NCBI GenBank assembly: GCA_947447815.1
Contig: CANFLJ010000001.1
Coordinates: forward strand, 1-30,315
Length of the DNA stretch: 30,315 nt
Direction: 5' to 3'
Origin: Chitinophagaceae bacterium
GTDB taxonomy: Bacteria > Bacteroidota > Bacteroidia > Chitinophagales > Chitinophagaceae
Under the pieces are notes generated by a model. It had not been told where the DNA came from. It saw only the letters and a list, made by a program, of their open reading frames with translations, and made no database searches. The position numbers were made by a program, and so were the translations under genes. Positions 2,716-21,061 of this stretch are shown in pieces. How positions within the stretch are numbered: the first letter of the stretch is position 1; every line of letters begins with the position of its first letter.

Positions 2716-4695
2716 TTATTCTAAAACATAAATTCCAATTGAAACTAAATAATTATAAGTAGAATTATAATAATCAGGGTTTCTTGTTGGGTCTTCAATA
2801 TCACCAAAAGGAACAACTATAACCATTCCTTGTCTTGCCCTTGTTAATAAAACTCTATAGGCATTTAATAGATATTTCTTTCTTTCGATCTTATGAATAT
2901 TCTGCCATTTATTTCCTACAAATGAAAATGTTTTCCATTCATTTTCTGAATATCTAAAATCTCCATCCCAAGTTACACAAGCCCAGTCAAGTTCTAATCC
3001 TTGAACCTGAAATTCAGTGGCAACATCTTCTAAATAATAAGACGATCTTACATCATCTTTATCATCTAAAAACCAGTTAACAGGATTCATAGGTGACTTT
3101 ACATCTATAGCTAATGGTTTCAATCTTTGAGCTTGAGACGAAACGACTATTCCATAGCGTTCATTACCTCTTGCTTTTTCTTTCAACCAAAGCTTTGCTT
3201 TAGTTAAGTCTCTAGTAATAACAATAGGATATTTTTTGTTGATTAAAGTAAATGTGTTCTTTGCGTTTACAATATCTAAATCTAAAATTTGTTTTACAAA
3301 TAGCGACACATTTTCAGCTCTATAAGATCGCATCGAAACGGCAAGATGTAAGTTCTCATCAAAATTGGTTATACATCTTTCTGTTATCTTATCAATGGAA
3401 GTTAAAGCATCATATTCTTTATCAGTAAGATTAGGAGAAATATGAACTTCCCAATGTGGAAATGAATCATAAATTGCATTCAGCCATTCTGAGATACCAG
3501 CTTCCCCTGTATTTATTTCTTGGCCACCTCCTACCAAGCATACAATTAATGCCCAATCTTTATGTCTATCTAAACAAGATATTAAGAATTCTGGTTCTGA
3601 ATAATGGAAATTAGGTTGATTCTTTTTTCGTCTCATGAAATCTATTGTCTGCTCTTTATTCCATGCTCTTTGCGCTTCATCAAAAATTGCTACATGATCA
3701 TATGGTTCTTTGGGGTCAGATAAATATGCATCTCTATAGTGATGAATAATTTGAATAAATGCTTTAACCCCTTCTCTTGCTGAACCTTTTGTAATTTTAT
3801 TGCCTTTCTCTTTTTCTCTTTTTACTTTATCCCTTGTTAATGCTTCTTGCAGAATAGCAACTAACGGCGCATTTCCTGAAAGAAATACACTTGAATTTCC
3901 TTTAGTTCTATCTAAATGAGTAGTTGCTACTTTTAATCCTACCAATGTTTTACCTGCTCCAGGTACGCCTGTTACAAAACAGATAACCTTTTTCTTAAAC
4001 TCTTTTGCATACTCTATTGTGTCAGAAATCGAATTGGTTGTTTTACTTAAATTTTTTGCTTCTGCATCGTTTCTAGTAATCTCTTCAACAGAATGTTCAT
4101 TATATAAATTAACAGCAGCTTCTATTATTGTAGGAGTTGGTGAATAGCTACCAGAAATAAATTGGTTGCCATCTATTTCTATTTTATTTGAAAAGAAAGT
4201 AACAGTATTCTGTATGACATTTTTAATTCCTAATTTATTCGTTTTTATTGGGATTATTAAGTTGTCTTTGTGTGATGTTGTAAAGATATTGATGGCAAAT
4301 TCATCAGCTTCTGTTGCAATTAAAATTGGAACTATAACTGCATCATGACTAGGTTTATGAAAGTTCTTCAAATCAAGTGCATAATCCCAAACCTGATTTA
4401 TGTTATGACTTAGATATTCTGTTTCTCCTACTTTAAATTCTAATACAAAGACGACATTTTCAATTACAAGTAAACAATCAATTCTTTTACCCATTCTTGG
4501 AATTGAAAACTCAAAGAAAATATTTCCACTAAACCCTTGTAGTTGATTTTTTAAAATAACAATCTGCTGTTTCCAAGCTTCGGTAGTATTTAAGTTGGTA
4601 TCAAATGTATTAGCAAGTGTTATTTCACCTATTATTTCTTCAATTGATTTAATAAGAAAATTATCTATGGAGTCTTTATAATAAGCGTTTAGCAT
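2716..4695 (-). CDS. DUF2075 (Schlafen group-3-like helicase) protein with N-terminal PD-(D/E)xK-like domain
   Basis: 659 aa. Walker A GVPGAGKT, Walker B IFDEAQR, TEFQVQGLELD, NAYRVLLTRARQG. N-terminal GKRIDCLLVIENVVFVLEFK. Confidence 0.85.
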   Translation of the reverse strand: MLNAYYKDSIDNFLIKSIEEIIGEITLANTFDTNLNTTEAWKQQIVILKNQLQGFSGNIFFEFSIPRMGKRIDCLLVIENVVFVLEFKVGETEYLSHNINQVWDYALDLKNFHKPSHDAVIVPILIATEADEFAINIFTTSHKDNLIIPIKTNKLGIKNVIQNTVTFFSNKIEIDGNQFISGSYSPTPTIIEAAVNLYNEHSVEEITRNDAEAKNLSKTTNSISDTIEYAKEFKKKVICFVTGVPGAGKTLVGLKVATTHLDRTKGNSSVFLSGNAPLVAILQEALTRDKVKREKEKGNKITKGSAREGVKAFIQIIHHYRDAYLSDPKEPYDHVAIFDEAQRAWNKEQTIDFMRRKKNQPNFHYSEPEFLISCLDRHKDWALIVCLVGGGQEINTGEAGISEWLNAIYDSFPHWEVHISPNLTDKEYDALTSIDKITERCITNFDENLHLAVSMRSYRAENVSLFVKQILDLDIVNAKNTFTLINKKYPIVITRDLTKAKLWLKEKARGNERYGIVVSSQAQRLKPLAIDVKSPMNPVNWFLDDKDDVRSSYYLEDVATEFQVQGLELDWACVTWDGDFRYSENEWKTFSFVGNKWQNIHKIERKKYLLNAYRVLLTRARQGMVIVVPFGDIEDPTRNPDYYNSTYNYLVSIGIYVLE

Positions 4696-7600
4696 TTATT
4701 GTTTATTTAAAGTATTAGTTCTTTCGAATGTTATTTCTGGCAAAATGATTAGTATTTCATTTTCAACATTTTCTTTTTTCCAGTAGATTATAAAATCAAT
4801 TTTCACTTCTTTTATATAAAACCCTTTAGCATTCATATCATTTATATAACCTTGAAACTGAGTTGAAAATTTAAGAATGCTATGACCCTTTTCTGTAACG
4901 CATTCTTGATTTTTATATATTAATCTATCACCGCCTTTTAAATTTTTTATTACCCATTGTTTATTTATGAAGTAATCTAACCACACGTCTTTATAGGATA
5001 CTTGTTTTAATATTTCTAAAGGTAGTGGATGGATGTTATTATTATTTTCAACTTTAATATTTTCAACTAAAATATTATCTAAATAATTGCCATTTAAATG
5101 TATTGTTAGATTTTGTTTTGCCCTTGTCATAGCTACATATAATAGGCGCTTATTTATATCAGTAGAGGTTGAATAATTATCTAGCAATAAAAATACATTA
5201 TCAAATTCTTTTCCTTTTGATTTATGAATAGTTGAAACAAATATTATATCGCCATTTGAATTAATAAAATCTTCAAGTTTTGATTCTCTTATATATATAT
5301 CAAGATCTGATTTGTATTTTCTTTTATTATTTGTAATTTCAAAATCTCTAATAATATTCAAACAAGTTTCATAATTAGTACTATTGAAGTATTTCTCTTT
5401 TAATTGTTTTTTAGCTTCAGCCCAATTTTCTTCATCTATAGTGAAAGTATTTTCTTCAAGTTTCAAAGCATGTATAAAAAATCTAATTTCTAAAAGATTC
5501 AGTAAATTAAAATTGTCATTTGTTTGAATTAGTTTGGCTTGATGTCCGTGTTTCAGAAGTAACCCAGTTACCTGTGCTGCTTCGTCGTTAGAGTGTGTAA
5601 GTATACATGTACTTCCTCTTAATTCAGTTGCAACTACATCTTTAACTAATGGTAAGATTAAGTTTGTATTTTTATATTTTACAATTTTAACATTGCCATT
5701 TTCTTCCATATTGGAAAAAACGGGAGTTTGTTTTAATCTATGACTAATTTGTTTAGCAAATTTTGTTGTGAATTCTACAAGATTTTTCTTACTTCTGAAA
5801 TTTTCGATCATTTCATAACTTACTGCCTTTTGCTCAATAATAAAATTTTCAAGATATTTAGAACTAGCTCCTCTAAACTCAAAAATATTTTGATCATCAT
5901 CTCCAACTGCAATAACTCTCATCTCTTCATTATTAGCAATTAATGTTTTAACTAATTCAAATTCGTTCCCATCCATATCCTGAGCTTCATCAATGACTAA
6001 GACATTTTTTGTAATGCCACTATGTTCTACTTCGCCATTCTTTATTTTTAAAATAGCATTTTCAATAATTTTACTTGATTTCTCTAGTGTTCCAACTTTT
6101 CCTAAGAGGTCAAAACAATATGAATGAAATGTTTTAATTTCAATAAAATTTGCAGCATTACCAATTAACTTAAGCAATCTTTTTTTAAATTCTGTTGCTG
6201 CACCCCTTGAAAATGTTACCATTAATAGCTGTTCATGTTTTACATCTTCCATTAACAATAAAGACGCTAGTTTATGAACTAATACCTTTGTTTTCCCACT
6301 ACCGGGTCCAGCAGCAACAACAATATATTTTGATTGAATATCATTGATTATTTTTAATTGTGTTGGAGACAATTCTCCAAATAGTTGTTTAAACTTAGAT
6401 GGTGTTATATTTCTAGTTATTTCACGTTGCTCATTTACATTAAAGTATTTTCCAAGAAAAGTTGAGTAGTTTAACTGAAAATAGTCATCTACAAACTTTA
6501 ATGCACTTGTATAATCTTCAATCATTTTTTTTGCATATGCACCAACAATATGAATTTGTTGGATTTTATTTTCATAAAATTTATTGAGATTTGTGTAATC
6601 TTCGTTTTTATATTGAATTTTATTATTATGTTCTAATCTCTCAATTGATAGTTTATTATATAACACTAAAAAACCACCTTCTATTTTAATTGCTTCAATT
6701 CTTGAAAGGAAAAACAATGCATTTTCTACATCTTCAATTGAAATATTTATTCTGAACAAAGATTGAGTTTTGTCATATTCCTCTTTAATTTCATGAACAG
6801 AAAATTCAATTAAAAATTCTTCTTTTTCATAATCTGTTTCTAAATATTCATTATTACATTTTTGAAATAATAAATCAACAATAAATCTTGCTAAAGTTTG
6901 TTGGCATTCCAATTTTTCCTGGAGTACTTTTTTAGGAACATTACTAATAATAACTATGTGATTCTTAGAATATTCTAAACTACTCTTTTTAACCCAGTTT
7001 TTGATTGCCCAAAAATTAAGTAAAGTTTTTATTTTGTTTGGTGTTACATCTTTACAGCCAAATTGTTCTATTTTTTCATTTAGTTCTTTAATATGAATTG
7101 TTTTTTCATTCTCATCAATTTCAGGTAATAAACTGTTTTCAATCTTTATAAAATTCTCTAATATATTTAGTGATTTGTTTTTCCCTTCTCCTCTTTTAAT
7201 AAATGCAGTTAAATCTTTAGTATCCGCTAATATTTTTTCTTCCCTTAATAAATTAATAACATTAATCACATCCTCTTTTACTATTCCTAAATGTTCGGAT
7301 ATATAATCAATTCTTGATTCAGCAACTTCGTCATTTGATTTACTTTTACTTTTACTTGAAAATAATTTTTTGATTATTCTTATTCCTTTTTCTTTTTGCT
7401 TTTCATCAAATTTATTAGAAGACATTATTTTTTCTATAGCTTCTTGTACATTTTTAGCTAATATACTTGAAGCATAAATTCTAGGCATATTTTGTCCTCT
7501 CTTAATATAACCTGCATCTTCTAACGCAGCAATAGCTGTTTTAACTCTTGTTTCAATCTCACCCAAAGAATCATCCCATCCAGCTTTCCTGGCAATCTCC

Positions 7601-9516
7601 AATGCTGAATTAGAAAATTTACCCTTAAACTTAGTAATGTCTTTTATTGCTTTCCATATTTGTTGAATCTCTTTTATACTAAGTTTTGTTTGATTAAGCA
7701 TTATAAAGTGTTTGCTTAAATCTTCTTCATCAAAAAGGACGTAACAATCAGCTGAAATATTTTCATCTCTACCGGCTCTCCCTGCTTCTTGTATATAATT
7801 CTCCAGTGAATCTGATATTTCATAATGAATTACCATTCTAACATCCTTCTTATCTACTCCCATACCAAAAGCAGAAGTAGCAACCATAATTTGTACATCT
7901 CCTTTAATAAATGCATTTTGGTTTGCTGTCTTTTCTTTCGAGTCCATTTTACCATGATATGGTTTTGCATTAAATCCATCATCACATAACCTTTTAGCTA
8001 ATAAAAATGCTTTACGAGTTCTGGATACATATACAATTGTTGGACAATTTTTTTCGTCAATTAAGTTTCTTGTAGTTAGGTATTTTTCTTCGTCTGTATT
8101 TTTGGGAATTACTTTATAATGTAGATTTGTTCTTGATGATTTAGAACTGAATAATTCAAGATCTAAATTCAATTTATCTCTAAAATATTTTTTGATATCT
8201 TCAATAACATTCTGTTTTGCAGTAGCTGTAAAACAGGATACTGGAATAGGTTCATTGAGATTCTTTTTTTCTTGAAGGTTATAAATAAAGTCTCCAATAT
8301 ACAAGTAATCTACTCTAAAATCTTGACCCCATGATGAAAAACAATGCGCTTCATCTATTACAAATCGTACAACATTTCGTCCTAATAGCAGTCGTTCAAT
8401 TGTTTTAGATCTAAGTGATTCAGGAGACAAATATAATAAGGAGGCAGAACCATCTTCAACTCTTTCGTAAGATTTTGCACGTTCTATTGGATCTAATAAT
8501 CCGTTAATCGTAACTGAGTCAGTTATTCCTCTGCTTTCTAAATTATCAACTTGATCTTTCATTAAAGATTGTAGAGGTGAAATTATAACAGTCAACCCTT
8601 TATTACATTCTCCTCTCATTAAAGCTGGTACTTGAAAGGTAATTGATTTTCCTCCTCCGGTAGGAAATACAGCCAATATAGATTTATTATTTATAGCTGC
8701 ATTTACTGCATTTTCTTGAAGGGGTTCATTTGAATATGTTCTATAATTTTCAAATCCAAAATACTTTTTTAGCCCTTTTTTTATATTTAATGATTCATTA
8801 CAATAATCACAACCAACTATACAAGGTTTACACCTTAATAAAAACATTACATTTTCTATATATGGATAGTTTTTAAGTACCCAAGGTGGAGTTATAGAAT
8901 ATCTATTGTTACACTCAATAAGTGCTAAGCAATATGCTAATTCAATTGGATTTGTTGAAACGATATTTGTGAGGTCAACACTATCACAAATTACAGATTT
9001 GAAATTGTGTTTTATTAAATTAGAAACATTTAATTCGTCGGTTTTGTAATTAATATATTTAAAAAAATATTTAAACTCTATTTGGTCTGATAACAATAAA
9101 AAGTAAATTTGTTTTAAGTATTCAGGTTTGTTCTTAAAAGACTCTAATTCTTCATAAAATAAATCTTTAGCTTTTATAGAATCGTTTAGAGGGTTGTTTA
9201 ATTCATCACTTTGTAATTTATCATCTTTTACAAGTTTGTGATAAGGTCTGGTAGGAAATAGTAATGGAGATAAGTATAAAGTATCTATAATATTATCTAA
9301 ATTTATGTCTCCAACATTTATTACTTTTTTTATATATTTAATGTCATGATTTAATACATTATGTCCACAAATAAATTGTTGCCCTTTTAAAAAATCAACA
9401 AATGCGTTTATTGATTTTGAATGAAAAAAAACGTATTCATCTTTAACAGCTCCTATATCTAAAATATGACCACTTTTAGGATCTATTTCCGTGTCAATAA
9501 ATGCTAATGAATTCAT
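4696..9516 (-). CDS. DEDD-exonuclease-like / RecQ (SF2) / UvrD-like (SF1) helicase fusion
   Basis: 1606 aa. Exonuclease-like: FIDTE, HNVLNHD, IDTL. RecQ: PTGGGKS, SPLQSLMKDQV, DEAHCFSSWGQDFR, TATA, ATSAFGMGVDK, QEAGRAGRD. UvrD: AGPGSGKT, DEAQD, VGDDDQNIFEFRG, NFRS, TIHKSKGKEFD, LYVAMTRAK. Confidence 0.92.
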   Translation of the reverse strand: MNSLAFIDTEIDPKSGHILDIGAVKDEYVFFHSKSINAFVDFLKGQQFICGHNVLNHDIKYIKKVINVGDINLDNIIDTLYLSPLLFPTRPYHKLVKDDKLQSDELNNPLNDSIKAKDLFYEELESFKNKPEYLKQIYFLLLSDQIEFKYFFKYINYKTDELNVSNLIKHNFKSVICDSVDLTNIVSTNPIELAYCLALIECNNRYSITPPWVLKNYPYIENVMFLLRCKPCIVGCDYCNESLNIKKGLKKYFGFENYRTYSNEPLQENAVNAAINNKSILAVFPTGGGKSITFQVPALMRGECNKGLTVIISPLQSLMKDQVDNLESRGITDSVTINGLLDPIERAKSYERVEDGSASLLYLSPESLRSKTIERLLLGRNVVRFVIDEAHCFSSWGQDFRVDYLYIGDFIYNLQEKKNLNEPIPVSCFTATAKQNVIEDIKKYFRDKLNLDLELFSSKSSRTNLHYKVIPKNTDEEKYLTTRNLIDEKNCPTIVYVSRTRKAFLLAKRLCDDGFNAKPYHGKMDSKEKTANQNAFIKGDVQIMVATSAFGMGVDKKDVRMVIHYEISDSLENYIQEAGRAGRDENISADCYVLFDEEDLSKHFIMLNQTKLSIKEIQQIWKAIKDITKFKGKFSNSALEIARKAGWDDSLGEIETRVKTAIAALEDAGYIKRGQNMPRIYASSILAKNVQEAIEKIMSSNKFDEKQKEKGIRIIKKLFSSKSKSKSNDEVAESRIDYISEHLGIVKEDVINVINLLREEKILADTKDLTAFIKRGEGKNKSLNILENFIKIENSLLPEIDENEKTIHIKELNEKIEQFGCKDVTPNKIKTLLNFWAIKNWVKKSSLEYSKNHIVIISNVPKKVLQEKLECQQTLARFIVDLLFQKCNNEYLETDYEKEEFLIEFSVHEIKEEYDKTQSLFRINISIEDVENALFFLSRIEAIKIEGGFLVLYNKLSIERLEHNNKIQYKNEDYTNLNKFYENKIQQIHIVGAYAKKMIEDYTSALKFVDDYFQLNYSTFLGKYFNVNEQREITRNITPSKFKQLFGELSPTQLKIINDIQSKYIVVAAGPGSGKTKVLVHKLASLLLMEDVKHEQLLMVTFSRGAATEFKKRLLKLIGNAANFIEIKTFHSYCFDLLGKVGTLEKSSKIIENAILKIKNGEVEHSGITKNVLVIDEAQDMDGNEFELVKTLIANNEEMRVIAVGDDDQNIFEFRGASSKYLENFIIEQKAVSYEMIENFRSKKNLVEFTTKFAKQISHRLKQTPVFSNMEENGNVKIVKYKNTNLILPLVKDVVATELRGSTCILTHSNDEAAQVTGLLLKHGHQAKLIQTNDNFNLLNLLEIRFFIHALKLEENTFTIDEENWAEAKKQLKEKYFNSTNYETCLNIIRDFEITNNKRKYKSDLDIYIRESKLEDFINSNGDIIFVSTIHKSKGKEFDNVFLLLDNYSTSTDINKRLLYVAMTRAKQNLTIHLNGNYLDNILVENIKVENNNNIHPLPLEILKQVSYKDVWLDYFINKQWVIKNLKGGDRLIYKNQECVTEKGHSILKFSTQFQGYINDMNAKGFYIKEVKIDFIIYWKKENVENEILIILPEITFERTNTLNKQ

Positions 9517-10478
9517 ATTTTGAAAATTTTCTCTCTATGCCAATTCAAATTCTCCATTAAAGGATAGTGTTCCTTTTGTTTTGGCAATCTAATTATTTTA
9601 CCTTCAAACTTTTTAAACCCATAATCGCTATCTACTTCTTGGAAAACAGCAGATAGTTTTACTCTATACTCTTTATCAATAGTTATTAATCCTCTATCAA
9701 ACGCTCTATGTAAATTTGGGCATAATGCTATCCCATTAGTAATAGTATCATTATAGCTTTCACTAAATGGTACAATATGGCAAGCATCCACCATAGAAAC
9801 ATTTATCAATGCATTTATCTTCAATCCCGATATACAACAAGTATTATCATATATCTTAGGTATCTCACGTTTAAACAAACTTCCTCTAATAAATATTTCC
9901 TCTTCATTCTGGTTTTCTACAAGAGTCTTTATCTCTTTCTTATATACCACAGCATCCTCTTTCATTATCTTACTGCCCAGCTCATCAAATAGTTTTAGCT
10001 GTCCTTCCAATGATTTTCCATAATTAGCTTTGGTAAGCGGAAAGTACGCATCCAACAAACAGTGTTGCAAAAAGTTATTACTTTCTTTAACCATCATTAA
10101 AGTGTATAAGTCTTCTGCTATCTCAGCATACTCTACAGCAGCATTAAGATTATTAAATGTCTTCATGATAGAACCCATCAAGTTTATATTCTCAAATCCG
10201 CTTTTGGCTACAAGTTTCCAAAATGTACTACTCTTTAAATAATAAAAAGGGTAAGAAATTCTACAGTCATGGTTAGTGGTAACTAACAAATTCCAGTTAG
10301 TACTAAAAGCTGCAACTAACTCCGGTGTAATATAAATTCTAGGTCTATGAATCTGTCCGTTTTCAAAAGACTGTAATACAGAAAGTAATAAGATTGGTTT
10401 ATGTGGTGCAGGGTCACCATGTGTTTTATCAATTCTTAGTTTCTTAAATGAGTTTATATATTTCTGTAGCACTTTCAA
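9513..10478 (-). CDS. HNH endonuclease with N-terminal SBD-like domain (putative modification-dependent restriction enzyme)
   Basis: 321 aa. C-terminal CCISG...DACHIVPF...NGIALCPNLHRAFDRG (HNH_2 type). N-terminal APHKPILLLSVL and ISYPFYYL. Confidence 0.85.
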   Translation of the reverse strand: MKVLQKYINSFKKLRIDKTHGDPAPHKPILLLSVLQSFENGQIHRPRIYITPELVAAFSTNWNLLVTTNHDCRISYPFYYLKSSTFWKLVAKSGFENINLMGSIMKTFNNLNAAVEYAEIAEDLYTLMMVKESNNFLQHCLLDAYFPLTKANYGKSLEGQLKLFDELGSKIMKEDAVVYKKEIKTLVENQNEEEIFIRGSLFKREIPKIYDNTCCISGLKINALINVSMVDACHIVPFSESYNDTITNGIALCPNLHRAFDRGLITIDKEYRVKLSAVFQEVDSDYGFKKFEGKIIRLPKQKEHYPLMENLNWHREKIFKI

Positions 10479-10762: not shown

Positions 10763-10815
10763 TCTGCACAACCAAACCCATTAACAGCAACCATATTAGC
10801 CAAAGGCATAAAACC

Positions 10816-10876
10816 TGTATCCTGTATTTGTATTCATTATCAAATTTTCAAATCATCAAATTATCACATTGGTATT
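10816..10876 (-). repeat. AATACA/TGTATT-delimited modular repeat cluster D
   Basis: tgtatcc-tgtatt-tgtatt-cattatcaaattttcaaatcatcaaattatcacatt-ggtatt. Confidence 0.85.
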
Positions 10877-10879
10877 CCT

Positions 10880-11018
10880 CTCGTTGTCACCCGTTCATAC
10901 ACAAGCCACATCAGTCGGTATGGTTTTGGCGTTAGCCAAAATGTTGAGCCCACTTTAGTGGGTGAGACAAATAGCGAGTGCAGTGGTGGTGTATGAACAA
11001 AAGCCAGCCGGCTATGAG
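10880..11018 (+). repeat. About 140-bp structured dispersed element, copy 1 (MITE/REPIN-like)
   Basis: Outer arms GTTCATACAC (10893-10902) and GTGTATGAAC (10989-10998). Inner hairpins TTTTGGC/GCCAAAA and CCCACT/AGTGGG. Inverted near-copy at 19799-19934. Confidence 0.85.
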
Positions 11019-11039
11019 GCAATTCTTCGCATAGATTAT

Positions 11040-11080
11040 CTATAAAGAAAAAGGCAAGTTCGACCCCGTTGGGGTCGTAG
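11040..11080. repeat. REP-like CGACCCC palindrome with flank, inverted relative to 2258-2298
   Basis: tctataaagaaaaaggcaagttCGACCCCGTTGGGGTCGt is close to the reverse complement of acgaccccaacggtgtcgaacttgctttttcttttataga. Confidence 0.8.
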
Positions 11081-11096
11081 GGGATCACCTGTTTGT

Positions 11097-11328
11097 TGTA
11101 TTTAAATACATTATCACATTTGTATTTTTAGTTTTTCTTTTTTTAGTCTTTAGTTTTTGAATTTGAATTCTTTTTACTTTTTATTTTTTACTTTGAAATG
11201 CATTCATTATCAAATTGCCTTGTATTCATTTTTAATTCTTAATTTTTAATTTGTATTGCTGTTCCTGTATTCATTATCAAATTTTCAAATCATCAAATTA
11301 TCACATTTGTATTTGCATTCTCCTTGTA
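11097..11328 (-). repeat. AATACA/TGTATT-delimited modular repeat cluster E
   Basis: Six TGTATT delimiters separating an 8-mer block, gctgttcc, catttttaattcttaatttttaatt and T-rich 7-mer blocks. Confidence 0.9.
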
Positions 11329-11329
11329 T

Positions 11330-11352
11330 AAAAAAAGGCAGACATCTCTGCC
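11330..11352 (-). terminator. Intrinsic terminator downstream of 11381-12310
   Basis: Minus strand GGCAGA-GATG-TCTGCC followed by a T run. Confidence 0.7.
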
Positions 11353-11380
11353 CACCTTTTTACTTTTGTTTCGTTACTTT

Positions 11381-12310
11381 TTACTTTGGAACAACCTTCG
11401 ACATCCCAATCACAAACTCATTAGGGTCATTCTTTTTAAATACTATATTCATAGTAGAATCTAAAAATCCAGGAGCAACTACTGTCAATACCGCCTTGCC
11501 CAGTATATGAGTAGTAAATTCTTTAATCCCAAGTTCATCCAGCTTAAATACCTTAGTTATTACCTTCTTTTTCTTAGTCGTAGTTCTCACTTCAGTTATC
11601 ACTGCATTCCCAATAGGTTCTCCGGTACTGGCGTTCACTACCGAATAACTACCTACATTATGCCTCTTACCCAATTGGATGGTCTTACCCAATAATCTCG
11701 CCTTATCTGCCAGTGTAGGATTGGAGTCTTTATACTCCCCTACCACAAGTTTAATCATTAGTTTCTTAATCTTCTTACCTTCATTAACCGACAAAGTCAA
11801 TAGATCTGTTCCTTCCGATTTTTTTGTCACTTCCTCGGTTCTCGGAACATTTTTATGTACTCTGTACAAATTTATCTTAGTATTAATATCTGTAATATCT
11901 GTAGCATCTATATTGGTAATGATCAGTTTATTAGTTACCAGAAGAGCCACTGCAGCATCTAGTTTTTGTAAACAGGTCTCTTTATTATTAGCATAAAAAT
12001 AAGTAAATGGCTTTTCCAGCTTTTTCTGAAGTGCTTTGTCTTTTGCCGAAATAGCCTTTGTTGTGGCTCTCACAAACAATTTAACAATAGTATTTACCGC
12101 CGTTGTCAGAAGCTCATCTACGGTTCCTGCATTCTCATCTGCAATACTTCCCTGCGCTTTTATAGCACCATCAGTTACCAGCAAACTAGCCGTCAGCAAA
12201 TCCGATTGATCCTTATACTCCTTTATCTCCAGCAAAACTTCAGGATTATTAATTTCTAACATTTTCACTTGTCTTTGACTTTCAATTTCTTCAGCTTGTA
12301 ATAGTTTCAT
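11381..12310 (-). CDS. Hypothetical cytoplasmic protein: helical N-terminal region plus beta-sandwich-like C-terminal domain
   Basis: 309 aa, no signal peptide. VVNASTGEPIGNAVI resembles the start of carboxypeptidase-regulatory-like domains. Terminator follows. Confidence 0.8.
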   Translation of the reverse strand: MKLLQAEEIESQRQVKMLEINNPEVLLEIKEYKDQSDLLTASLLVTDGAIKAQGSIADENAGTVDELLTTAVNTIVKLFVRATTKAISAKDKALQKKLEKPFTYFYANNKETCLQKLDAAVALLVTNKLIITNIDATDITDINTKINLYRVHKNVPRTEEVTKKSEGTDLLTLSVNEGKKIKKLMIKLVVGEYKDSNPTLADKARLLGKTIQLGKRHNVGSYSVVNASTGEPIGNAVITEVRTTTKKKKVITKVFKLDELGIKEFTTHILGKAVLTVVAPGFLDSTMNIVFKKNDPNEFVIGMSKVVPK

Positions 12311-12438
12311 GATCTTCCTTTTTAATATGTTTAATATATTTTCTTTATTTATTTACTGGCAATTGCCTTTATAATGTGTACTGAACACTAATTTTTTCAA
12401 TTTTCATCGTCCATTTTCATCCTTCAGCTCATTTTTTC

Positions 12439-12669
12439 AATCCTCATGCTTCTTTTACCAATCCTCACGCATCTTTTACTAATCCTCACTCATCTTTTTT
12501 CAATCCTCACTCATCTTTTACCAATCCTCGCTCATCTTTTACTAATCCTCACTCATCTTTTATTAATCCTCACTCATCTTTTATTAATCCTCACTCATCT
12601 TTTTTCAATCCTCACTCATCTTTTACTAATCCTCGCTCATCTTTTACTAATCCTCACTCATCTTTTAAA
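12439..12669. repeat. Tandem array, 11 x 21 bp, consensus AATCCTCACTCATCTTTTACT
   Basis: Units start at 12439, 12460, 12481, 12502, 12523, 12544, 12565, 12586, 12607, 12628 and 12649, with no spacers. Confidence 0.97.
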
Positions 12670-12764
12670 AATATCTCCATTATTATTTTTTCTACCGCTT
12701 AATAAAGAACTTTTACGATCCAGAGAATCTGCTTTTCTAAAGCCACTTTCCTTTTTTCGTTTTA

Positions 12765-12917: not shown

Positions 12918-13044
12918 TGTATTACTCTTTGCCTTCGCAACCTTGCCTTGTATTTGTATTCTTTTTACTTTTTGTTTTTTACTTATTACTTTGAAATGTA
13001 TTCAGTATCAAATTATCACATTATCAAATTAGCAAATTGGTATT
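12918..13044 (-). repeat. AATACA/TGTATT-delimited modular repeat cluster F
   Basis: tgtatt-actctttgccttcgcaaccttgcct-tgtatt-tgtatt-ctttttactttttgttttttacttattact...-tgtatt-cagtatcaaattatcacattatcaaattagcaaatt-ggtatt. Confidence 0.85.
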
Positions 13045-13837: not shown

Positions 13838-16315
13838 TTGTTGTATACCATTCCCGAAATAGCTAAGATTATAAATGCGGAAATGCGCAGTGGCAGCCAT
13901 GCCGCGGGCAGCATACCCAGCATCAAAATAGATCATCTGCTGACCGATAGCCGCAAAATAGTACTTCCAAAGTCTTCCTTGTTCTTTGCGCTGAAAAGCA
14001 GCCGCAGAAGCGGCGAGGACTTTATAGCCGAAGTATACGAAAGAAGGGTAAGGCATTTTGTGGTGGAAAGAGATTTTGATTGCAGTCCTTTTCCGGAGGC
14101 CATCTTTCTGCTGGTAGATAATGTGCTGGAGGCCCTGCAGGACCTGGCGAGCCATCACCGTGCCTGCTTTGATTATCCGGTAATAGGTATTACGGGTAGT
14201 AATGGTAAAACCATTGTAAAAGAATGGCTGAACGAACTTCTGGAAGACGATTATAAGATAGTGCGTAGTCCGCGGAGCTACAACTCGCAGATTGGGGTGC
14301 CGCTGAGTGTATGGGAGATGAACCATCATCATACCCTGGCGATATTTGAGGCGGGAATATCCACCGTGAACGAGATGGCTACCCTACAATCGGTAATACG
14401 CCCTGGTATTGGCATACTGACCAATATAGGATCGGCACATGACGAGGGTTTTAAAGATACTAAAGAGAAACTGAAAGAGAAGATTAAACTATTTAGTGAG
14501 GCGGAATATGTGGTGGCGGAATATGGGCTGATACCGAAGGATGCGCTGAAGGCTAAGCAACTTACCTGGAGCTTTATAAATGAGGGTGCCGACCTGTTTA
14601 TAGCGGGCATAGAAAAACATGCTGCTAAAACAACGCTGGAGATACGCTATCAGGAACATCCATTTAAACTAACTATACCATTTACCGATAGTGCCTCTAT
14701 CAGCAATGCGGTAACCTGCATAACGCTGATGCTGCTACTGGGTATTGACTTTGCTACGATAGAATCGAGATTGCAATTGCTGAAGGGGGTAGAAATGCGT
14801 TTGCAACTGAAAACGGGGGTGAACAACTGCTTTCTGATAAATGATAGTTACAGCAACGATATATCCTCGCTGAGCATAGCGCTGGACTACCTGAAACAGC
14901 AATCGGGCAAGAATAAAACGACGGTGATACTCTCGGATATATTTCAGTCGGGGGTGGATGATATGGCCCTATACAAGCAGGTAGCGGAAGCCCTTGCGGA
15001 AAGGGGCATTGACCGACTGGTGGCCGTGGGTAAACATATCAATAAGGCGCTGTACCTTTTTCAGGCTGCGGTGGCTAAGGTGGAACTATACTCATCGACC
15101 GAGAACTTTCTGCGTCAGACTACTACCCACCACTTTAAGGATGAATACATATTGCTGAAGGGTGCGAGGGTTTTTGAGTTTGAAAGGATTGCGAATAAGC
15201 TGAGTCAGAAAGTACATCAGACGGTGCTGGAGATAAACCTGTCGGCACTGGTAAAGAACCTGAAAATATACCAGCAACACCTGTTGCCTTCTACCAAGCT
15301 GATGGCGATGGTAAAGGCCTATGGCTACGGTAGCGGCAGCGCGGAAGTGGCGAGGGTATTGCAATATCATAAAGTAGATTATCTGGCGGTGGCCTATGCG
15401 GATGAAGGAGTGGAGCTGCGTAAGGCGGGCATTAGTCTACCCATCATGGTGATGAATGCAGATGAAGAGGCCTTTGATGCGATGGTGGAAAATAACCTGG
15501 AGCCGGAGATCTATTCATTTAATATCTACAATGCTTTTCATGCTTACCTGGTAAGACAGGGGATCAAGCAACATCCTATTCATATAAAGATTAATACGGG
15601 CATGAACCGCCTGGGCTTTGAGCATCTGGATGCAGTGGAGCTGGGTAAACTTTTGATAGAAAGAAAGACGATGGTGGTGCAATCGGCGTTCAGTCACCTT
15701 GCTGCCAGCGAGGATGATGGCATGGATGAATTTACTGCTCATCAGACTTATCTGTTTGATGGTTTCTGTGGCACCTTGAAAAACATTATAGGCTATGGGT
15801 TTATAAAGCATGTGGCCAACTCGGCGGCTATCTTCCGTCACCCCGGCTACCAGTATAATATGGTGCGTCTGGGCATTGGACTATATGGTGTAGACTCGGC
15901 ATCGCTACCGGGTATCCGTCTGGAGAATGTGGCATCGCTGAAGACGACCATTGCTCAGATAAGGACTATCAGTGCGGGCGAAACAGTGGGCTACAACCGT
16001 AGGGGCACCGTGGAAAGAACCAGTAGAATTGCTACCATCCGTATTGGCTACGCCGACGGTTATAGCAGGCGAATGGGTAATGGCGCTGGGTTTGTGTATG
16101 TACGCAACAGAAGAGTACCGGTAATAGGGAATGTATGTATGGATATGACGATGATAGATGTAACGGATATTCCGGATATAGCGGAGGGTGATGTGGTGGA
16201 AGTATTTGGCCCGAACATTCCGGTAGAGGAGATAGCGCTGGAATGTGATACGATTGCCTACGAGATACTTACGGGGATTAGCCAGCGGGTGAAGCGGGTT
16301 TATATTGAGGAGTAG
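13838..16315 (+). CDS. murF-alr: Bifunctional UDP-MurNAc-tripeptide:D-Ala-D-Ala ligase / alanine racemase
   Basis: 825 aa. Mur ligase GITGSNGKT and INDSYS; Alr MVKAYGYGSG (PLP Lys), HIKINTGMNRLG, VGYNR, GNVCMDM. TACTTTTG at 13788-13795. Confidence 0.95.
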   Translation: MLYTIPEIAKIINAEMRSGSHAAGSIPSIKIDHLLTDSRKIVLPKSSLFFALKSSRRSGEDFIAEVYERRVRHFVVERDFDCSPFPEAIFLLVDNVLEALQDLASHHRACFDYPVIGITGSNGKTIVKEWLNELLEDDYKIVRSPRSYNSQIGVPLSVWEMNHHHTLAIFEAGISTVNEMATLQSVIRPGIGILTNIGSAHDEGFKDTKEKLKEKIKLFSEAEYVVAEYGLIPKDALKAKQLTWSFINEGADLFIAGIEKHAAKTTLEIRYQEHPFKLTIPFTDSASISNAVTCITLMLLLGIDFATIESRLQLLKGVEMRLQLKTGVNNCFLINDSYSNDISSLSIALDYLKQQSGKNKTTVILSDIFQSGVDDMALYKQVAEALAERGIDRLVAVGKHINKALYLFQAAVAKVELYSSTENFLRQTTTHHFKDEYILLKGARVFEFERIANKLSQKVHQTVLEINLSALVKNLKIYQQHLLPSTKLMAMVKAYGYGSGSAEVARVLQYHKVDYLAVAYADEGVELRKAGISLPIMVMNADEEAFDAMVENNLEPEIYSFNIYNAFHAYLVRQGIKQHPIHIKINTGMNRLGFEHLDAVELGKLLIERKTMVVQSAFSHLAASEDDGMDEFTAHQTYLFDGFCGTLKNIIGYGFIKHVANSAAIFRHPGYQYNMVRLGIGLYGVDSASLPGIRLENVASLKTTIAQIRTISAGETVGYNRRGTVERTSRIATIRIGYADGYSRRMGNGAGFVYVRNRRVPVIGNVCMDMTMIDVTDIPDIAEGDVVEVFGPNIPVEEIALECDTIAYEILTGISQRVKRVYIEE

Positions 16316-16317
16316 GT

Positions 16318-16540
16318 TAATGTGATAATTTGATGATTTGAAAATTTGATAATGAATACAAATACAGGGCAAAGAGGCAAGGAGTAATACAAGGAACAAA
16401 GGCAACGAGGCACATAGGTATACAGGAACAGCCAATACAAATTAAAAATTAAGAATTAAAAATAGAATACAAATACACGGTACAAAGGTTTGGGTTAATA
16501 CTGGCTTTTTTTTACTTTTTGTTTTTTACTTTTTACTTTA
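16318..16540 (+). repeat. AATACA-delimited modular repeat cluster G
   Basis: 8-mer block-aataca-aataca-gggcaaagaggcaaggagt-aataca-...-ggaacagcc-aataca-aattaaaaattaagaattaaaaatag-aataca-aataca; starts right after the alr stop. Confidence 0.9.
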
Positions 16541-16601
16541 TTAAACTACTTTGTTTGGGTATGGCTTTCTTTTTAAATCAACTTTTTCATACTACTTATA
16601 T

Positions 16602-19487
16602 ATGAGATACCGGATCTTTTTTATATTAACCTTTTTACTAATGATTGCTGTGGCTAGTGAAGCTCAGCAGTTTTATCGTACCAGTAAGCCTGCCAGACGG
16701 TGGGTGGATAGTGTATATAAATCGCTTAGCAAGGAGGAACGTATTGCTCAGCTGATGGTGGTGCGTGCACATAGTAATCTGGGACCTGAACATGTGGCGG
16801 AGCTTACTCAAATAATTAAAAAGTATAATGTAGGGGGACTCTGCTTTTTTCAGGGTGGACCGGTAAGAGAGGCTATGCTGACCAACTACTATCAGCAGCT
16901 TTCCAAGACCCCTCTGATGGTTTGTATAGATGGTGAATGGGGACTGGGTATGCGACTGGATAGTGTAGTGAACTTTCCTCGTCAGATGATGATTGGCGCT
17001 GTGGCTGATAGCAATATAGTATATGCCTTTGGTAAGGCCGTGGCCAGACAGTGTAAGCGACTGGGCATACAGGTGAACTATGCTCCGGTGACCGACATTA
17101 ACAACAACCCTGACAACCCCGTAATTAATGACAGAAGCTTTGGAGAGAACAAGTATAAAGTAGCCTCGTTTGCTACCGCCTACATGCGTGGGCTGCAGGA
17201 TGAAAATGTGATGGCCTGTGCAAAGCATTTTCCTGGACATGGTGATGTGGCCGTGGATAGTCACCTGGATCTTCCGGTAATGAATAAAACCCTTGAGCAG
17301 CTGGATTCGCTAGAGCTATACCCTTTCCGAAGGATCATTAATGCGGGTGTGGCGAGTGTGATGAATGCACACCTGTACATTCCATCGATAGATACTACCG
17401 CTAACAGGGCTACTTCGCTTTCGTACAAAAATGTAACGGGATTGCTGAAGAACGAACTGGGTTTTAAAGGCATAGCCGTAACAGATGGTCTGGAGATGAA
17501 GGGGATTGCGAAATTTTATCCTGCAGGCGAAGCTTCGGTACAATCGCTGATAGCAGGAAATGATATGCTTTGTCTGCCAGGCGACATAGAAGGCAGTATA
17601 CAAAAAACGATGCTGGCACTGAAGCACCGATTGATAAAAAGAAAGGAATTTAAGGCGAGAGTAAAGAAGATATTGCTGTCGAAATATAACCTGCAACTTA
17701 ATCATGTATCGCCAATAGATACCGCCCATATAACAGAAGATATTAATAAAAATACCGCCGACATCAATACCCTGATTGCCAACAATGCCATCACCCTGGT
17801 AAAGCAGGAAACTGCGGGTATACTTCCTGTAACTGCAAAGGATAAACTGGCGTATATAGCAATAGGTACAGGAGTTGACAATGCTATTATCCGGTACCTG
17901 AAAACGAAGGTCGGCATAACTGTATTTTACCTTAATACCACAACTGATTCTGTACGCAGTTCTTTATTGATAGACAGTATTGCAAATGCGGGTTATACTA
18001 AGATAATTGCAGGCATACATCATTATAGCAGGAGACCTGCTAATAACTTCGGTATTGCAGGACCGAATCTGTATGCCATACAGTTGCTGGCAAAAAAGAA
18101 GCATGCTATTATGGTGGCATTTGGTAATCCTTACTTCATCAGAAACTTTGCTGCGGCTGCCAATATCATGGCCTGCTATGAAGATGATGATATCACGCAG
18201 ACTGTTGCTGCACAGATGCTGCTGGGCTATCTGCAACCTAAGGGTACTCTGCCCGTATCGGTTAATAATACCCTGAAAGCAGGTACTGGCATTGTAAGCA
18301 GTGCACTTGCAGTGAATGAAACAGGGATAAATACCAGCGCTATAGATAGTATTGTACAAAATGGCCTGTTGGAAAAAGCATTTCCTGGCTGCAGCATAAT
18401 GGCTATTTATAAAGGCAAGATAGTACTGCATAAAACCTATGGATTTACCGACAATGAACATGCAGTGCCTGTAAGTAAAAACATGCTGTATGATGTTGCC
18501 TCTATAACCAAAGTAGCTGCTACCACCCTTGCAGTAATGAAGCTGTATGACGAACAGAAAATAAAGCTGGATGATACTTTGGGCATGTATCTTCCCCTTA
18601 CCCGTAATACAGAGATAGGAGGATTGACTATCCGCAACCTGATGATTCATCAGGCTGGACTGGTATCCTTTATTCCATTTTACAAAGAGCTAACCGATAC
18701 CCTGAAAGGAAAGGTAAAGCCTAGTTATTTTAGTAGCACCTATAGCACAGCATTTCCTATTCCTGTTGCTGAAAATATGTATCTGAGAAAGGACTGGAAC
18801 GATACGATGTATAGCAGAATAACCAACAGTAAACTGGTAAATAAAGGACGATATGTATATAGTGATAACGATTTTATACTGATGGGGAAAGTAGTAGAAA
18901 GCATTACCCATCAATCGCTGGAAGATTATGTAACAGAACAGTTTTATCTGCCGATGCAACTGAACAATATTGGTTATCATCCACTGGATAAATTTTATGC
19001 GCAAGCGATTGTTCCATCGGAAAAAGACAACTGGTTTAGAAAGCAAACTTTACAGGGTTATGTAAACGACGAGGGCGCTGCTATGATGGGTGGTGCAGCA
19101 GGACATGCAGGACTGTTTGCCAATGCCGAAAACCTTGGAATTTTGTTTCAGATGTTGCTGAATAAAGGCAGCTGGAATGGAAGAATCTACATACAACCTT
19201 CTACGGTAGATTTATTTACCGGATACCATAGTAAACAAAGCAGAAGGGGACTGGGATTTGATAAACCGGAATTACATAATCAGGGTAAGGATCATTATCC
19301 ATGCCCTTCAATATCGAGCGCTGCCTTTGGGCATACCGGATTTACGGGCACCTGTGTATGGGCCGATCCTGCGAAGGAACTGGTATTTGTATTTTTGAGT
19401 AACCGAACATATCCTGACAGGAAAAATACTTTATTGAATAGTATGAATATCAGGGGTAAGTTGCTGGAGGAGTGCTACAAGTTTTAG
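16602..19487 (+). CDS. Secreted GH3 beta-N-acetylglucosaminidase (NagZ-like) fused to a beta-lactamase-fold serine hydrolase
   Basis: ATG at 16602 gives signal peptide MRYRIFFILTFLLMIAVASEA. KHFPGHGDVAVDSH, VTDGLEM; SxxK in ASITK, YSD, GHTGFTG. Confidence 0.92.
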   Translation: MRYRIFFILTFLLMIAVASEAQQFYRTSKPARRWVDSVYKSLSKEERIAQLMVVRAHSNLGPEHVAELTQIIKKYNVGGLCFFQGGPVREAMLTNYYQQLSKTPLMVCIDGEWGLGMRLDSVVNFPRQMMIGAVADSNIVYAFGKAVARQCKRLGIQVNYAPVTDINNNPDNPVINDRSFGENKYKVASFATAYMRGLQDENVMACAKHFPGHGDVAVDSHLDLPVMNKTLEQLDSLELYPFRRIINAGVASVMNAHLYIPSIDTTANRATSLSYKNVTGLLKNELGFKGIAVTDGLEMKGIAKFYPAGEASVQSLIAGNDMLCLPGDIEGSIQKTMLALKHRLIKRKEFKARVKKILLSKYNLQLNHVSPIDTAHITEDINKNTADINTLIANNAITLVKQETAGILPVTAKDKLAYIAIGTGVDNAIIRYLKTKVGITVFYLNTTTDSVRSSLLIDSIANAGYTKIIAGIHHYSRRPANNFGIAGPNLYAIQLLAKKKHAIMVAFGNPYFIRNFAAAANIMACYEDDDITQTVAAQMLLGYLQPKGTLPVSVNNTLKAGTGIVSSALAVNETGINTSAIDSIVQNGLLEKAFPGCSIMAIYKGKIVLHKTYGFTDNEHAVPVSKNMLYDVASITKVAATTLAVMKLYDEQKIKLDDTLGMYLPLTRNTEIGGLTIRNLMIHQAGLVSFIPFYKELTDTLKGKVKPSYFSSTYSTAFPIPVAENMYLRKDWNDTMYSRITNSKLVNKGRYVYSDNDFILMGKVVESITHQSLEDYVTEQFYLPMQLNNIGYHPLDKFYAQAIVPSEKDNWFRKQTLQGYVNDEGAAMMGGAAGHAGLFANAENLGILFQMLLNKGSWNGRIYIQPSTVDLFTGYHSKQSRRGLGFDKPELHNQGKDHYPCPSISSAAFGHTGFTGTCVWADPAKELVFVFLSNRTYPDRKNTLLNSMNIRGKLLEECYKF

Positions 19488-19630: not shown

Positions 19631-19798
19631 GCGGAATTCAGACTATTTTGATCCTGCTTTATTCTTAATGCTATACTCTTAACACGCTGTTTTCCCTGAT
19701 AAATAGCCGAATAAAAAGTATATCCCTTCATTGTTGATTAATGGATACCTTATATACTCTGAGCATTATTTTATATAGTTTTCATTTTAAGATTTTGT

Positions 19799-19934
19799 CT
19801 CATAGCCGGCAGGCTCTGTTCATACACCACCACTGCTGACTCCTTGTCTTACCCACTAAAGTGGGCTCAACATTTTGGCTATCGCCAAAACCGGACCGAC
19901 TGATGTGGCTTGTGTATGAACGGGTGACAACGAG
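19799..19934 (-). repeat. About 140-bp structured dispersed element, copy 2 (inverted)
   Basis: Reverse complement aligns to 10880-11018 at roughly 90% by eye. Confidence 0.85.
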
Positions 19935-20070
19935 TAGGACAGCTTAAATAATACTTTGAACATGCCTTATTCGTAGTTCTTTTAGTGTTATAAATTCATT
20001 TCCCAAAACAACACTTCATTAATAAAGTAAATAATTCTGTAATATCGGCTATCGATTATGTAGTTGAGTG

Positions 20071-20922
20071 TTATTTATTTTTGAGGAGGTTTACTACATC
20101 TACTGTAAGTCCGGCTGAAATGCAATTGGTTAATGCATCTACTTTTTTCCTAGACACAAAAGAACTAAGTGTTGCAGTACCAATAAGATGGAAATTTTTT
20201 ACTCCTAAAGATATCATAGCAGTAGGTTCAAAGGTTACCAGATAATCGTTGCTATTCACATTCATTTTGAAGTAGTCCTTTTCGTTTGTTGTATAATTAT
20301 TGTCTGCAAATTGGTAGTTGAATGCGGAGATTTTTCCTACTAAAGCAAGCGAAATATTTGGGATAGGATTTATATAAAAACCTGGTTGAATAAAGAAGGT
20401 ATTGATGGAACCATTCTGATGTCGTTCATATTTATTAGTATCGCTGGAAAAACCGCTTTCATTCATTGAAAACTGACCTATGCTATACCCGGCATATGTA
20501 CTAAAAAAGATTGTTTTTGTTTTGTTTACAGGAGTATAATATCCCAACATAAACTCCTGAGTACTTCTGCTGGTGTGCACATTAGAAGAATCGTAATAGT
20601 TGTACTCTACAGGCTTAAATAATCCACCATTACTCCGATAATAAATAGTATGATCGCTCATATAATTGTAACTATACCCAATAGCCCAATGATTGCTAAT
20701 TGCATAAGCTGTTTTAAATGCTAGGCCATATATGGTGGCTTTGCCTTGTGATCCCAAGGAGCCTTCGGCACTTAATTTAGATTCTCCTTTCTTTTCTAAT
20801 ACTGGAATATTAGGAGTAGGCACATAGTATAAAAACCTGTGGGAGGAACAGGCTGTTAAGGACAATATCAATGACAGGATGATTGTACTCTTTATTTTAT
20901 CAGCTAAAAGGTATAAAGACAT
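20071..20922 (-). CDS. Hypothetical lipoprotein, beta-strand rich
   Basis: 283 aa. Lipobox-like IILSLILSLTAC; alternating aromatic/Gly strands. Confidence 0.75.
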   Translation of the reverse strand: MSLYLLADKIKSTIILSLILSLTACSSHRFLYYVPTPNIPVLEKKGESKLSAEGSLGSQGKATIYGLAFKTAYAISNHWAIGYSYNYMSDHTIYYRSNGGLFKPVEYNYYDSSNVHTSRSTQEFMLGYYTPVNKTKTIFFSTYAGYSIGQFSMNESGFSSDTNKYERHQNGSINTFFIQPGFYINPIPNISLALVGKISAFNYQFADNNYTTNEKDYFKMNVNSNDYLVTFEPTAMISLGVKNFHLIGTATLSSFVSRKKVDALTNCISAGLTVDVVNLLKNK

Positions 20923-20939
20923 AGATATAATTCAGGTGC

Positions 20940-21000
20940 AATATAAATACAAATTTGATGATTTGATATTTTGATGATTTGATAATGTATACAAATACAG
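20940..21000 (+). repeat. AATACA-delimited modular repeat cluster I
   Basis: aataca-aatttgatgatttgatattttgatgatttgataatg-tataca-aataca. Confidence 0.8.
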
Positions 21001-21061
21001 AGGTCTCTGAATGCAGCTAATGCTTAGTAATACAACTGCTGATTTATATTCTATCTTCCAT

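Follow-up and report, generated by a model that had tools for sequence, protein, structure and literature searches.

A compact islet of three nuclease and helicase genes of anti-phage type, probably acquired separately, in a Chitinophagaceae genome

Enzymes that join a sulfur-binding domain (SBD) to an HNH nuclease domain, such as EcoWI and SprMcrA, work as single genes, cutting phosphorothioate (PT) DNA in vitro and restricting dnd+ plasmids in vivo; an association with dnd genes is reported for under 3.6% of SBD-HNH enzymes (PMC7461809). The sulfur cavity of the solved SBDs consists of HK or HR plus YP (PMC10602919, PMC7461809). The PDC models of PADLOC describe untested candidates of one or several genes, identified by their position inside BREX, DISARM or type I restriction-modification (RM) loci (10.1101/2024.01.29.577857). 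Here we describe a locus in which genes of these kinds stand end to end. It lies in a 30,315-nucleotide stretch (hereafter the window) that is the entire contig C1 (CANFLJ010000001.1) of a 2.1-Mb, 73%-complete Chitinophagaceae metagenome-assembled genome (MAG; GCA_947447815.1), and it holds three genes on the reverse strand, to which the coordinates of their domains given below refer as well. Gene 1 (9513-10478, 321 aa, TTG start) encodes an SBD-HNH nuclease by its matches to HNH_2, PT-DNA_restrict and PDB entry 8h0l, gene 2 (4696-9516, 1606 aa) encodes an exonuclease-RecQ-UvrD fusion (hereafter the fusion), and gene 3 (2716-4695, 659 aa) encodes a PD-(D/E)xK nuclease joined to a DUF2075 helicase, with an Nhi-like architecture and a match to PDC-S41. 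We consider this 7.8-kb AT-rich block to be, probably, a compact islet of three separately acquired, self-sufficient anti-phage-type genes and not one three-part system, because the families rarely co-occur, sister genomes swap partners, and the overlap at the end of the HNH gene is unspecific.

Co-occurrence of the three gene families

The three genes are co-oriented and follow one another without a gap, as a preliminary description of this locus had stated and as the open reading frames (ORFs) and junction sequences confirm. The TGA stop of the HNH gene overlaps the ATG start of the fusion in an ATGA at 9513-9516, and the TAA stop of the fusion is followed directly by the ATG of the DUF2075 gene in a TAAATG at 4693-4698. 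Because no intergenic space separates them, the three genes are probably one transcription unit, transcribed together as one mRNA that would start upstream of 10478 and end at a terminator-like hairpin with a T-run at 2673-2692 on the same strand. That hairpin, 24 nt 3' of the DUF2075 stop, is likely the 3' end of the unit, and a second terminator-like hairpin at 11336-11353 closes the gene upstream of HNH. A sigma-70 promoter scan returned fewer sites than shuffled sequences did (34 versus 53), and the strict Bacteroidota -33/-7 pattern had no site upstream of HNH.

Such a layout, with co-orientation, no intergenic space and a single terminator-like hairpin after the last gene, is what an obligate three-component system might look like, and the activities are complementary on paper: the HNH protein would sense or nick modified DNA, and the two helicase-nucleases would then degrade it processively. 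To evaluate neighbourhood conservation, we compared about 200 loci anchored on the fusion, the HNH or the DUF2075 gene. These comprised 25 fusion loci (+/-7 kb) from a sample of 200 Chitinophagaceae genomes, whose 362 ORFs were clustered all against all, 80 HNH loci from species-representative genomes and 80 DUF2075 loci from metagenomes, alongside a phylum-wide sample of 400 genomes; the scans of fusion neighbours were made with two sequences left out. The complete trio was in no comparison locus from any of the three anchors and was seen only in this window, a same-genus genome keeps the HNH gene without the other two, and each family is usually solitary or found with other partners. We regard an obligate trio as extremely improbable.

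Each anchor in turn revealed few shared neighbours. The fusion is present in about 28 of the 200 family genomes (48-68% identity, several of them pseudogenes) and in 20 of the 400 phylum genomes, and was not found in two genomes of the same genus. No neighbour family was common to more than 4 of the 25 family fusion loci. HNH abuts the fusion in G025 only (G and L numbers denote comparison genomes and loci) and a DUF2075 gene stands beside it only in G061, where the two are convergent and the fusion is pseudogenised; in the phylum sample, G323 carries a DUF2075 homologue upstream of the fusion. From the HNH side, the fusion follows HNH in 2 of 80 loci (L106, L110). From the DUF2075 side, the fusion was adjacent in 3 of 80 loci, each with a different arrangement, and HNH in 1 of 80, with no neighbour family in more than 7 of the 80; the P0003-type DUF2075 genes have no conserved neighbour. 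At the level of whole genomes in the family sample, HNH and the fusion occurred together once against 0.98 expected, and DUF2075 and the fusion four times against 1.7 expected (P = 0.07).

The preliminary description had proposed that the HNH protein senses and the helicase-nucleases degrade as one operon, and had named rare co-occurrence in other genomes as the finding that would speak against this. Rare co-occurrence is what the neighbourhoods gave from all three sides, and the one-operon proposal is left unsupported, with the trio confined to this window, the fusion lacking a conserved neighbour, and the HNH partners varied and swapped. The alternative that it offered, an accretion of independent defence genes at a single site, agrees best with the data, and the trio should not enter defence-system catalogues as one unit.

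The neighbours of the fusion also bear on whether this gene is defensive at all. The 142 nearest neighbours across the 25 loci were mixed: a few were defence genes (type I RM, GmrSD, LmuA, PD-Lambda-2), and many were ordinary ones of housekeeping type, such as TonB receptors, sigma/FecR pairs and a glyoxalase. The N-terminal domain of the fusion was further found on 29 plasmids (records from Bacteroides, Rhizobium, Nostoc and others), phage records gave no instance of it, and on a Bacteroides plasmid record ordinary genes surround the copy. An alternative would make the fusion, with perhaps the DUF2075 protein as well, an accessory enzyme of repair, recombination or replication restart carried on mobile DNA, with HNH the only restricting member, a reading in line with RecQ, UvrD and DEDD exonucleases being classic repair modules and with the closest architectures, WRN and Staphylococcus aureus DinG, being repair proteins. 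Against it stand the patchy spread of the gene (14% of family genomes), its pseudogenes and low GC, the separate RecQ of this genome, the defence genes among its neighbours, and its occurrence in sister genomes at the position otherwise taken by Wadjet, described below. We judge a primarily non-defensive role very unlikely.

The HNH gene and its exchangeable neighbours

Comparing close relatives of the HNH gene revealed that what lies past its stop codon changes while the gene itself is kept. In the same-genus genome G027, also a Chitinophagaceae MAG, HNH is 87% identical in amino acids and 84% in nucleotides and is followed by a C5-cytosine methyltransferase, and the DNA shared with the window is essentially the gene alone. 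That methyltransferase (L061/L103, 3-1316), truncated by the end of the contig, shows the motifs FxGxG, PCQ, ENV and QNRPRF. Three Segetibacter MAGs (L105, L121, L106) share 88-91% nucleotide identity over about 9 kb that ends at the last base of HNH, past which two carry Wadjet (JetA, MksE, DUF3584) and one carries the fusion. The Segetibacter homology ends at about 8951-8957, and either cargo starts by overlapping the stop of HNH by 4 nt, which looks like a precise point of cassette exchange.

The 4-nt overlap itself is not specific to the fusion. All four close HNH-fusion pairs (the window, L106, L110 and L035) have it, it also joins HNH to jetA in L121, and the exact overlap between HNH and a downstream gene recurs in 8 of 77 HNH loci, where the downstream genes belong to 5 unrelated families. 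Among the 80 HNH loci, Wadjet jetA/MksE/DUF3584 follows HNH in two, Hachiman HamA with its helicase follows in two, GmrSD pairs precede it in two, and a SauUSI-like gene of PLD-helicase-DUF3427 type lies nearby in several; the Hachiman genes, the GmrSD pairs and a SauUSI-like enzyme closely abut HNH. A maximum-likelihood tree of 81 HNH proteins placed the four fusion-linked HNHs inside one well-supported clade of 22 sequences, together with Wadjet-, Hachiman- and two DUF2075-linked HNHs. The four need at least 4 gains or losses on this tree, no fewer than shuffled labels do, and the nearest relative of each lacks the fusion. Because the same overlap joins HNH to unrelated families and swaps occur, the overlap is not evidence of a dedicated partnership; judged from these sequences, overlap and co-orientation reflect the place of this HNH clade before exchangeable cargo.

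Two other arrangements around HNH were seen among the same 80 loci. In about 13 of them (L133, L135, L150, L178, L125, L126 and others), HNH sits inside a compact dnd-like cluster, between a 447-aa PAPS-reductase/DndC-like gene immediately upstream (gap 0-13 bp) and, downstream, a 520-aa gene with a DndE domain and a HerA-like ATPase. By their gene content, these clusters are phosphorothioation-type modules with an embedded PT-reader nuclease, and their frequency here is far above the proportion published for SBD-HNH enzymes. In eight loci (L136, L151, L158, L164, L173, L174, L175, L180), the gene immediately before HNH (gap 0-35 bp) encodes a helicase of a second DUF2075 family (about 618 aa) and itself follows a MazG-like gene of 109 aa, and MazG-DUF2075-HNH may be a conserved module.

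Several observations weigh against three wholly independent genes: pairs of the families turn up more often than would be expected of genes with no relation to each other, and they do so in more than one order and orientation. HNH is followed by the fusion in six genomes (the window, G025, L106, L110, G243 and G251), and in L106 and L110 the pair is shared as a unit at 75% nucleotide identity. A DUF2075 helicase stands directly upstream of HNH in 12 of the 80 HNH loci (4 with the P0003-type gene, 8 with the second family) and in L227 of the DUF2075-anchored set, and the fusion and a DUF2075 gene are adjacent in seven loci including the window, in three arrangements. Lutz et al. (2019) raised the possibility that modification-dependent nucleases act together with DUF2075 or RecQ-like helicases encoded next to them (PMC6765204). 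We infer a role of the fusion in defence, and only some of its neighbours are defence genes. In G243 and G251 (L282, L283), the HNH gene (30% identical) lies about 270 bp upstream of the fusion (35% in its N-terminal part) in the order of the window, an adjacency that is either old or has arisen repeatedly.

These recurrences could reflect modules that cooperate in pairs, where a portable SBD-HNH protein that reads modified DNA and nicks or cuts it, encoded before or behind the ATP-driven fusion or DUF2075 processors, gives these their entry points, and each works alone and better together, loosely like McrB/McrC or an embedded type IV enzyme. The HNH-fusion adjacency at 30-35% identity spans a deep divergence, the DUF2075 genes before HNH come from two families, the ATGA coupling is kept in four HNH-fusion pairs, and the pair in L106 and L110 travels as one; the proposal of Lutz et al. 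is the same one for other modification-dependent enzymes, and a defence gene embedded in another system shares the orientation of that host in 96.7% of cases and may share its regulation (10.1101/2024.01.29.577857). Set against this, HNH is joined just as closely to Wadjet, Hachiman, GmrSD and genes without assignment, it is absent from about 39 of 42 fusion loci and about 79 of 80 P0003-type DUF2075 loci, order and orientation vary and include convergent pairs, and SBD-HNH enzymes are active alone (PMC7461809). Pairwise cooperation is, on balance, unlikely.

A more specific proposal would make the Bacteroidota SBD-HNH gene with an overlapped stop a leader for exchangeable cargo (the fusion, Wadjet and others), with DUF2075 upstream, such that a PT reader is wired to ATP-driven processors and cuts PT-marked invader DNA to load them; the window would then hold two processors on one reader. 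We give this leader function only a slim chance. Under the preferred reading of an islet of independent genes, these placements still matter. A clade of PT-reader HNH genes appears as the constant element to which exchangeable defence cargo is joined at a 4-nt overlap, and the presence of the fusion in the exact Wadjet slot of sister genomes argues from context, more directly than anything before, for its stand-alone defence role. The DUF2075 helicase-nucleases recurring directly upstream of HNH make the older idea of teamwork between type IV nucleases and helicases testable. New here are the HNH-anchored swappable slot, the swap of Wadjet for the fusion in it, and the recurrent DUF2075-HNH pairing.

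Domains and predicted activities of the three proteins

All three genes are of anti-phage or anti-mobile-element type by family and domain content, as the preliminary description had held, and its count of three helicase motors and three nuclease-type domains proved correct, with the motor motifs intact and the HNH, DEDD and PD-(D/E)xK domains each supported. Its reading of gene 1 as an SBD-HNH protein was also right. The sulfur-binding domain (residues 5-152; 10023-10466) matches the solved SBDHga1 (PDB 8h0l, E = 4.9e-12) and has both the HK and the YP cavity residues, since H26-K27 and Y76-P77 fall at sulfur-cavity positions and the motifs PHK (25-27) and YPF (76-78) take the places that H25/K26 and L75/P76 have in SBDHga. 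The HNH catalytic core (residues 214-268; 9675-9839) carries CC 214-215, CHI 233-235 and CPNLH 253-257 and matches Pfam HNH_2 over residues 214-268 at 49.7 bits against a cut-off of 21. Because gene 1 aligns end to end (residues 8-320) with NCBIfam NF045808 PT-DNA_restrict yet scores 112.1 bits, under the cut-off of 180, we place it by sequence in a divergent Bacteroidota branch of the SBD-HNH family, as a putative PT-dependent type IV restriction endonuclease. Acting alone, its SBD would capture the PT sulfur of incoming DNA in the hydrophobic cavity (H26/K27, Y76/P77) and its HNH domain would cut near the captured PT, a mechanism that is established for the family and predicted for this protein.

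The fusion is composed of five parts, the first of which gave no Pfam or PDB sequence match over its N-terminal 250 residues. This part (residues 1-245; 8782-9516), recognised from conservation and a structure model, consists of an exonuclease domain of DEDD type (DnaQ fold), a helical subdomain and a Cys cluster. Across 45 homologues of 34-58% identity, D8, E10, N53, D58, D78, K97 and D112 are invariant, as are C177 and C239 of the Cys cluster, with C232 and C236 nearly so; an NNP context replaces the usual His or Tyr of DEDDh and DEDDy enzymes, and H93 is nearly invariant. The AlphaFold model of this domain reached a pLDDT of 92.6, and its best fold matches in the PDB were the exonuclease domains of S. 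aureus DinG (top), T7 DNA polymerase, family-B polymerases, REXO2/Orn and PolC. Conservation and modelled fold together identify the N-terminus as a DEDD exonuclease domain.

Next comes a RecQ-type superfamily 2 helicase core (residues 246-630; 7627-8781) with Pfam DEAD and Helicase_C matches, a score of 279 bits to TIGR00614 recQ_fam (cut-off 220) and the motifs GGGKS 287-291, DEAH 388-391 and QEAGRAGR 576-583. A linker of about 415 aa (residues 631-1045; 6382-7626), with faint matches of winged helix-turn-helix type only, leads to a UvrD/PcrA-type superfamily 1 core (residues 1046-1490; 5047-6381), assigned from Pfam, NCBIfam and the motifs GSGKT 1072-1076, DEAQ 1176-1179 and VAMTRA 1461-1466. 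Walker A, Walker B and arginine-finger motifs are intact in both motors. The C-terminal domain of about 115 aa (residues 1491-1606; 4699-5046) has no significant family match. A Pfam search at E values up to 1 gave nothing usable for the linker, for the C-terminal domain or for the N-terminal parts of genes 1 and 3, and PHROGs gave generic helicase and HNH matches only.

The N-terminal part of the fusion has 1124 relatives among 1.84 billion cluster representatives, the full-length ones being nearly all about 1600 aa, and full-length homologues are 48-70% identical. Full-text literature searches returned no paper describing an exonuclease-RecQ-UvrD defence protein. The fusion is a member of a large, uncharacterised, mostly solitary and mobile gene family. 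Working alone, it would use ATP to unwind and degrade foreign or aberrant DNA wherever 3' ends, nicks or forks are accessible, as its domain content, mobility and context suggest. Genes 1 and 3 are of known or catalogued kinds, and the fusion belongs to an unstudied family.

Gene 3 begins with a RecB-like PD-(D/E)xK core (about residues 55-130; 4306-4533) defined by E62, D73, E86-x-K88 and Q101-xxx-Y105, and 49 homologues retain all six residues without exception. The N-terminal model (pLDDT 82.6) found its best fold matches in McrC, Cdn1, Can2/Card1, Cas4-family and AddAB nuclease domains. The DUF2075/Schlafen-group-3 superfamily 1 helicase (residues 236-629; 2809-3990) matches Pfam PF09848 SLFN-g3_helicase at 276.6 bits over those residues and retains intact GAGKT 246-250 and DEAQ 339-342 motifs. 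PADLOC assigned the whole protein to PDC-S41 (943 bits, E = 1.9e-284, residues 1-658 on profile positions 1-653 of 657), a single-gene candidate, which supports gene 3 acting alone; that scan gave gene 3 no match to an Nhi model, and apart from PDC-S41 its one match was a weak one to Cas3b. Full-text literature searches brought up no paper that names PDC-S41. From its architecture and the PDC-S41 match, gene 3 would act on its own like the Nhi-type nuclease-helicase immunity proteins.

Genomic setting and comparison with known systems

The three-gene block is 28.5% GC (fusion 26.8%, DUF2075 gene 30.8%, HNH 31.7%) against 35.9% for the genome (standard deviation 2.8 in 2-kb windows), and 99.9% of genome windows have a higher GC than the fusion. 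The preliminary description had contrasted this block with murF-alr. The AT-richness stands, and the size of the shift was overstated because murF-alr, at 47.5% GC, is itself the top outlier of the genome. Low GC, a fusion family borne on plasmids, pseudogenised fusion copies and a separate housekeeping-type RecQ elsewhere in this genome are signs of foreign origin. Its statement that the window holds no methyltransferase or dnd gene agrees with our Pfam scan, which found none among 17 window ORFs including every plausible gene of at least 197 aa, the other, mostly overlapping ORFs of at least 80 aa lying outside the scan. A DndC- or DndE-type gene was likewise not found in the 73%-complete genome.

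Short intergenic repeats flank the block on both sides, in a left cluster at 2013-2428, of a family found genome-wide, and in a right cluster at 10794-11313 that also includes a unit of about 200 nt, found again at 19781-19935. The repeats measure about 50-80 nt (AATGTGATAATTTGATGATTTGAAAATTTGATAATGAAT...) and occur in both orientations at 245-298, 2029-2186, 2383-2428, 10794-10880 and 11259-11313, with more copies of the family at 12961-13043, 16319-16392 and 20946-21025. Each query found 54-74 matches in each of two same-genus genomes. They are a genus-wide element resembling repetitive extragenic palindromes or miniature inverted-repeat transposable elements, and they probably explain the fragmented assemblies. 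We considered such palindromes as brackets of the operon and rejected the idea, as they stand at seven or more other sites in the window and in dozens of copies per sister genome. An empty, pre-insertion site could not be reconstructed from the two same-genus genomes, where the flanks are unconserved or consist of high-copy short repeats at which the assemblies break.

Other features of the window lie apart from the three genes. Inverted repeats of 91 nt (10880-10970 and 19844-19934, 96% complementary) surround a segment with murF-alr and a gene of GH3/beta-lactamase fold, and the block bearing murF-alr (13838-19487) is 42-47% GC, the top GC outlier of the assembly against its 35.9%. A tandem array of 11 copies of a 21-nt unit (12390-12714) lies between a 309-aa gene without assignment and a LuxR-type regulator gene. 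At the contig start lies a SAM-I/IV riboswitch on the reverse strand (24-132; Rfam RF01725, 47.7 bits, gathering score 41.1); nothing else of the left flank is kept in G027, where this stretch is 92% identical. A 1481-aa ORF on the reverse strand (21327-25772) has no Pfam match at E <= 0.001, and the same holds for the ORFs at 26268-27746, 20071-20922, 11381-12310, 653-1324 and 1335-1973.

Taken as a set, the genes match no known system, as the preliminary description had supposed: PADLOC gave domain-level DpdF and GajB matches for the fusion (its only matches there), a generic HNH and PDC-S41, and it holds no model for the trio. Gene 1 resembles SprMcrA and EcoWI in its two-domain order, SBD then C-terminal HNH, and in its HK and YP cavity residues; ScoMcrA carries an extra SRA domain. 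Unlike the described SBD-HNH enzymes, its branch often leads or sits within other gene clusters, and its PT-dependence is predicted from sequence. Gene 2 shares with WRN, a eukaryotic exonuclease-RecQ protein, and with S. aureus DinG, a DEDD exonuclease-helicase, a DnaQ-fold exonuclease placed N-terminal to a helicase. Beyond that arrangement it has a whole UvrD motor together with its linker (about 415 aa) and C-terminal domain (about 115 aa), and it is a mobile accessory gene and not a core repair gene. Gene 3 joins nuclease and DUF2075 helicase in one protein as do Nhi of S. epidermidis (10.1101/776245) and the 'Nhi-like' proteins of Millman et al. 2022 (10.1101/2022.05.11.491447), yet falls outside the PADLOC Nhi model, and PDC-S41 is a candidate by guilt of embedding (10.1101/2024.01.29.577857).

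Multi-gene systems and defence islands offer a further comparison. The UvrD-like and RecQ-like motors of the fusion recall GajB of Gabija and DpdF of Dpd, as matched by PADLOC at the level of domains, but the window is without a GajA, HamA or dpdA-C partner as in Gabija, Hachiman and Dpd, and the matches cover single domains of the fusion. The locus resembles the defence islands of Makarova (2011) and the embedded genes of Payne et al. 2024 (10.1101/2024.01.29.577857), in which independent, co-oriented systems are packed at variable hotspots and cassettes are swapped between close relatives. It differs from those islands in its fixed anchor, which here is one small type IV nuclease gene whose stop codon is overlapped by the start of the next gene.

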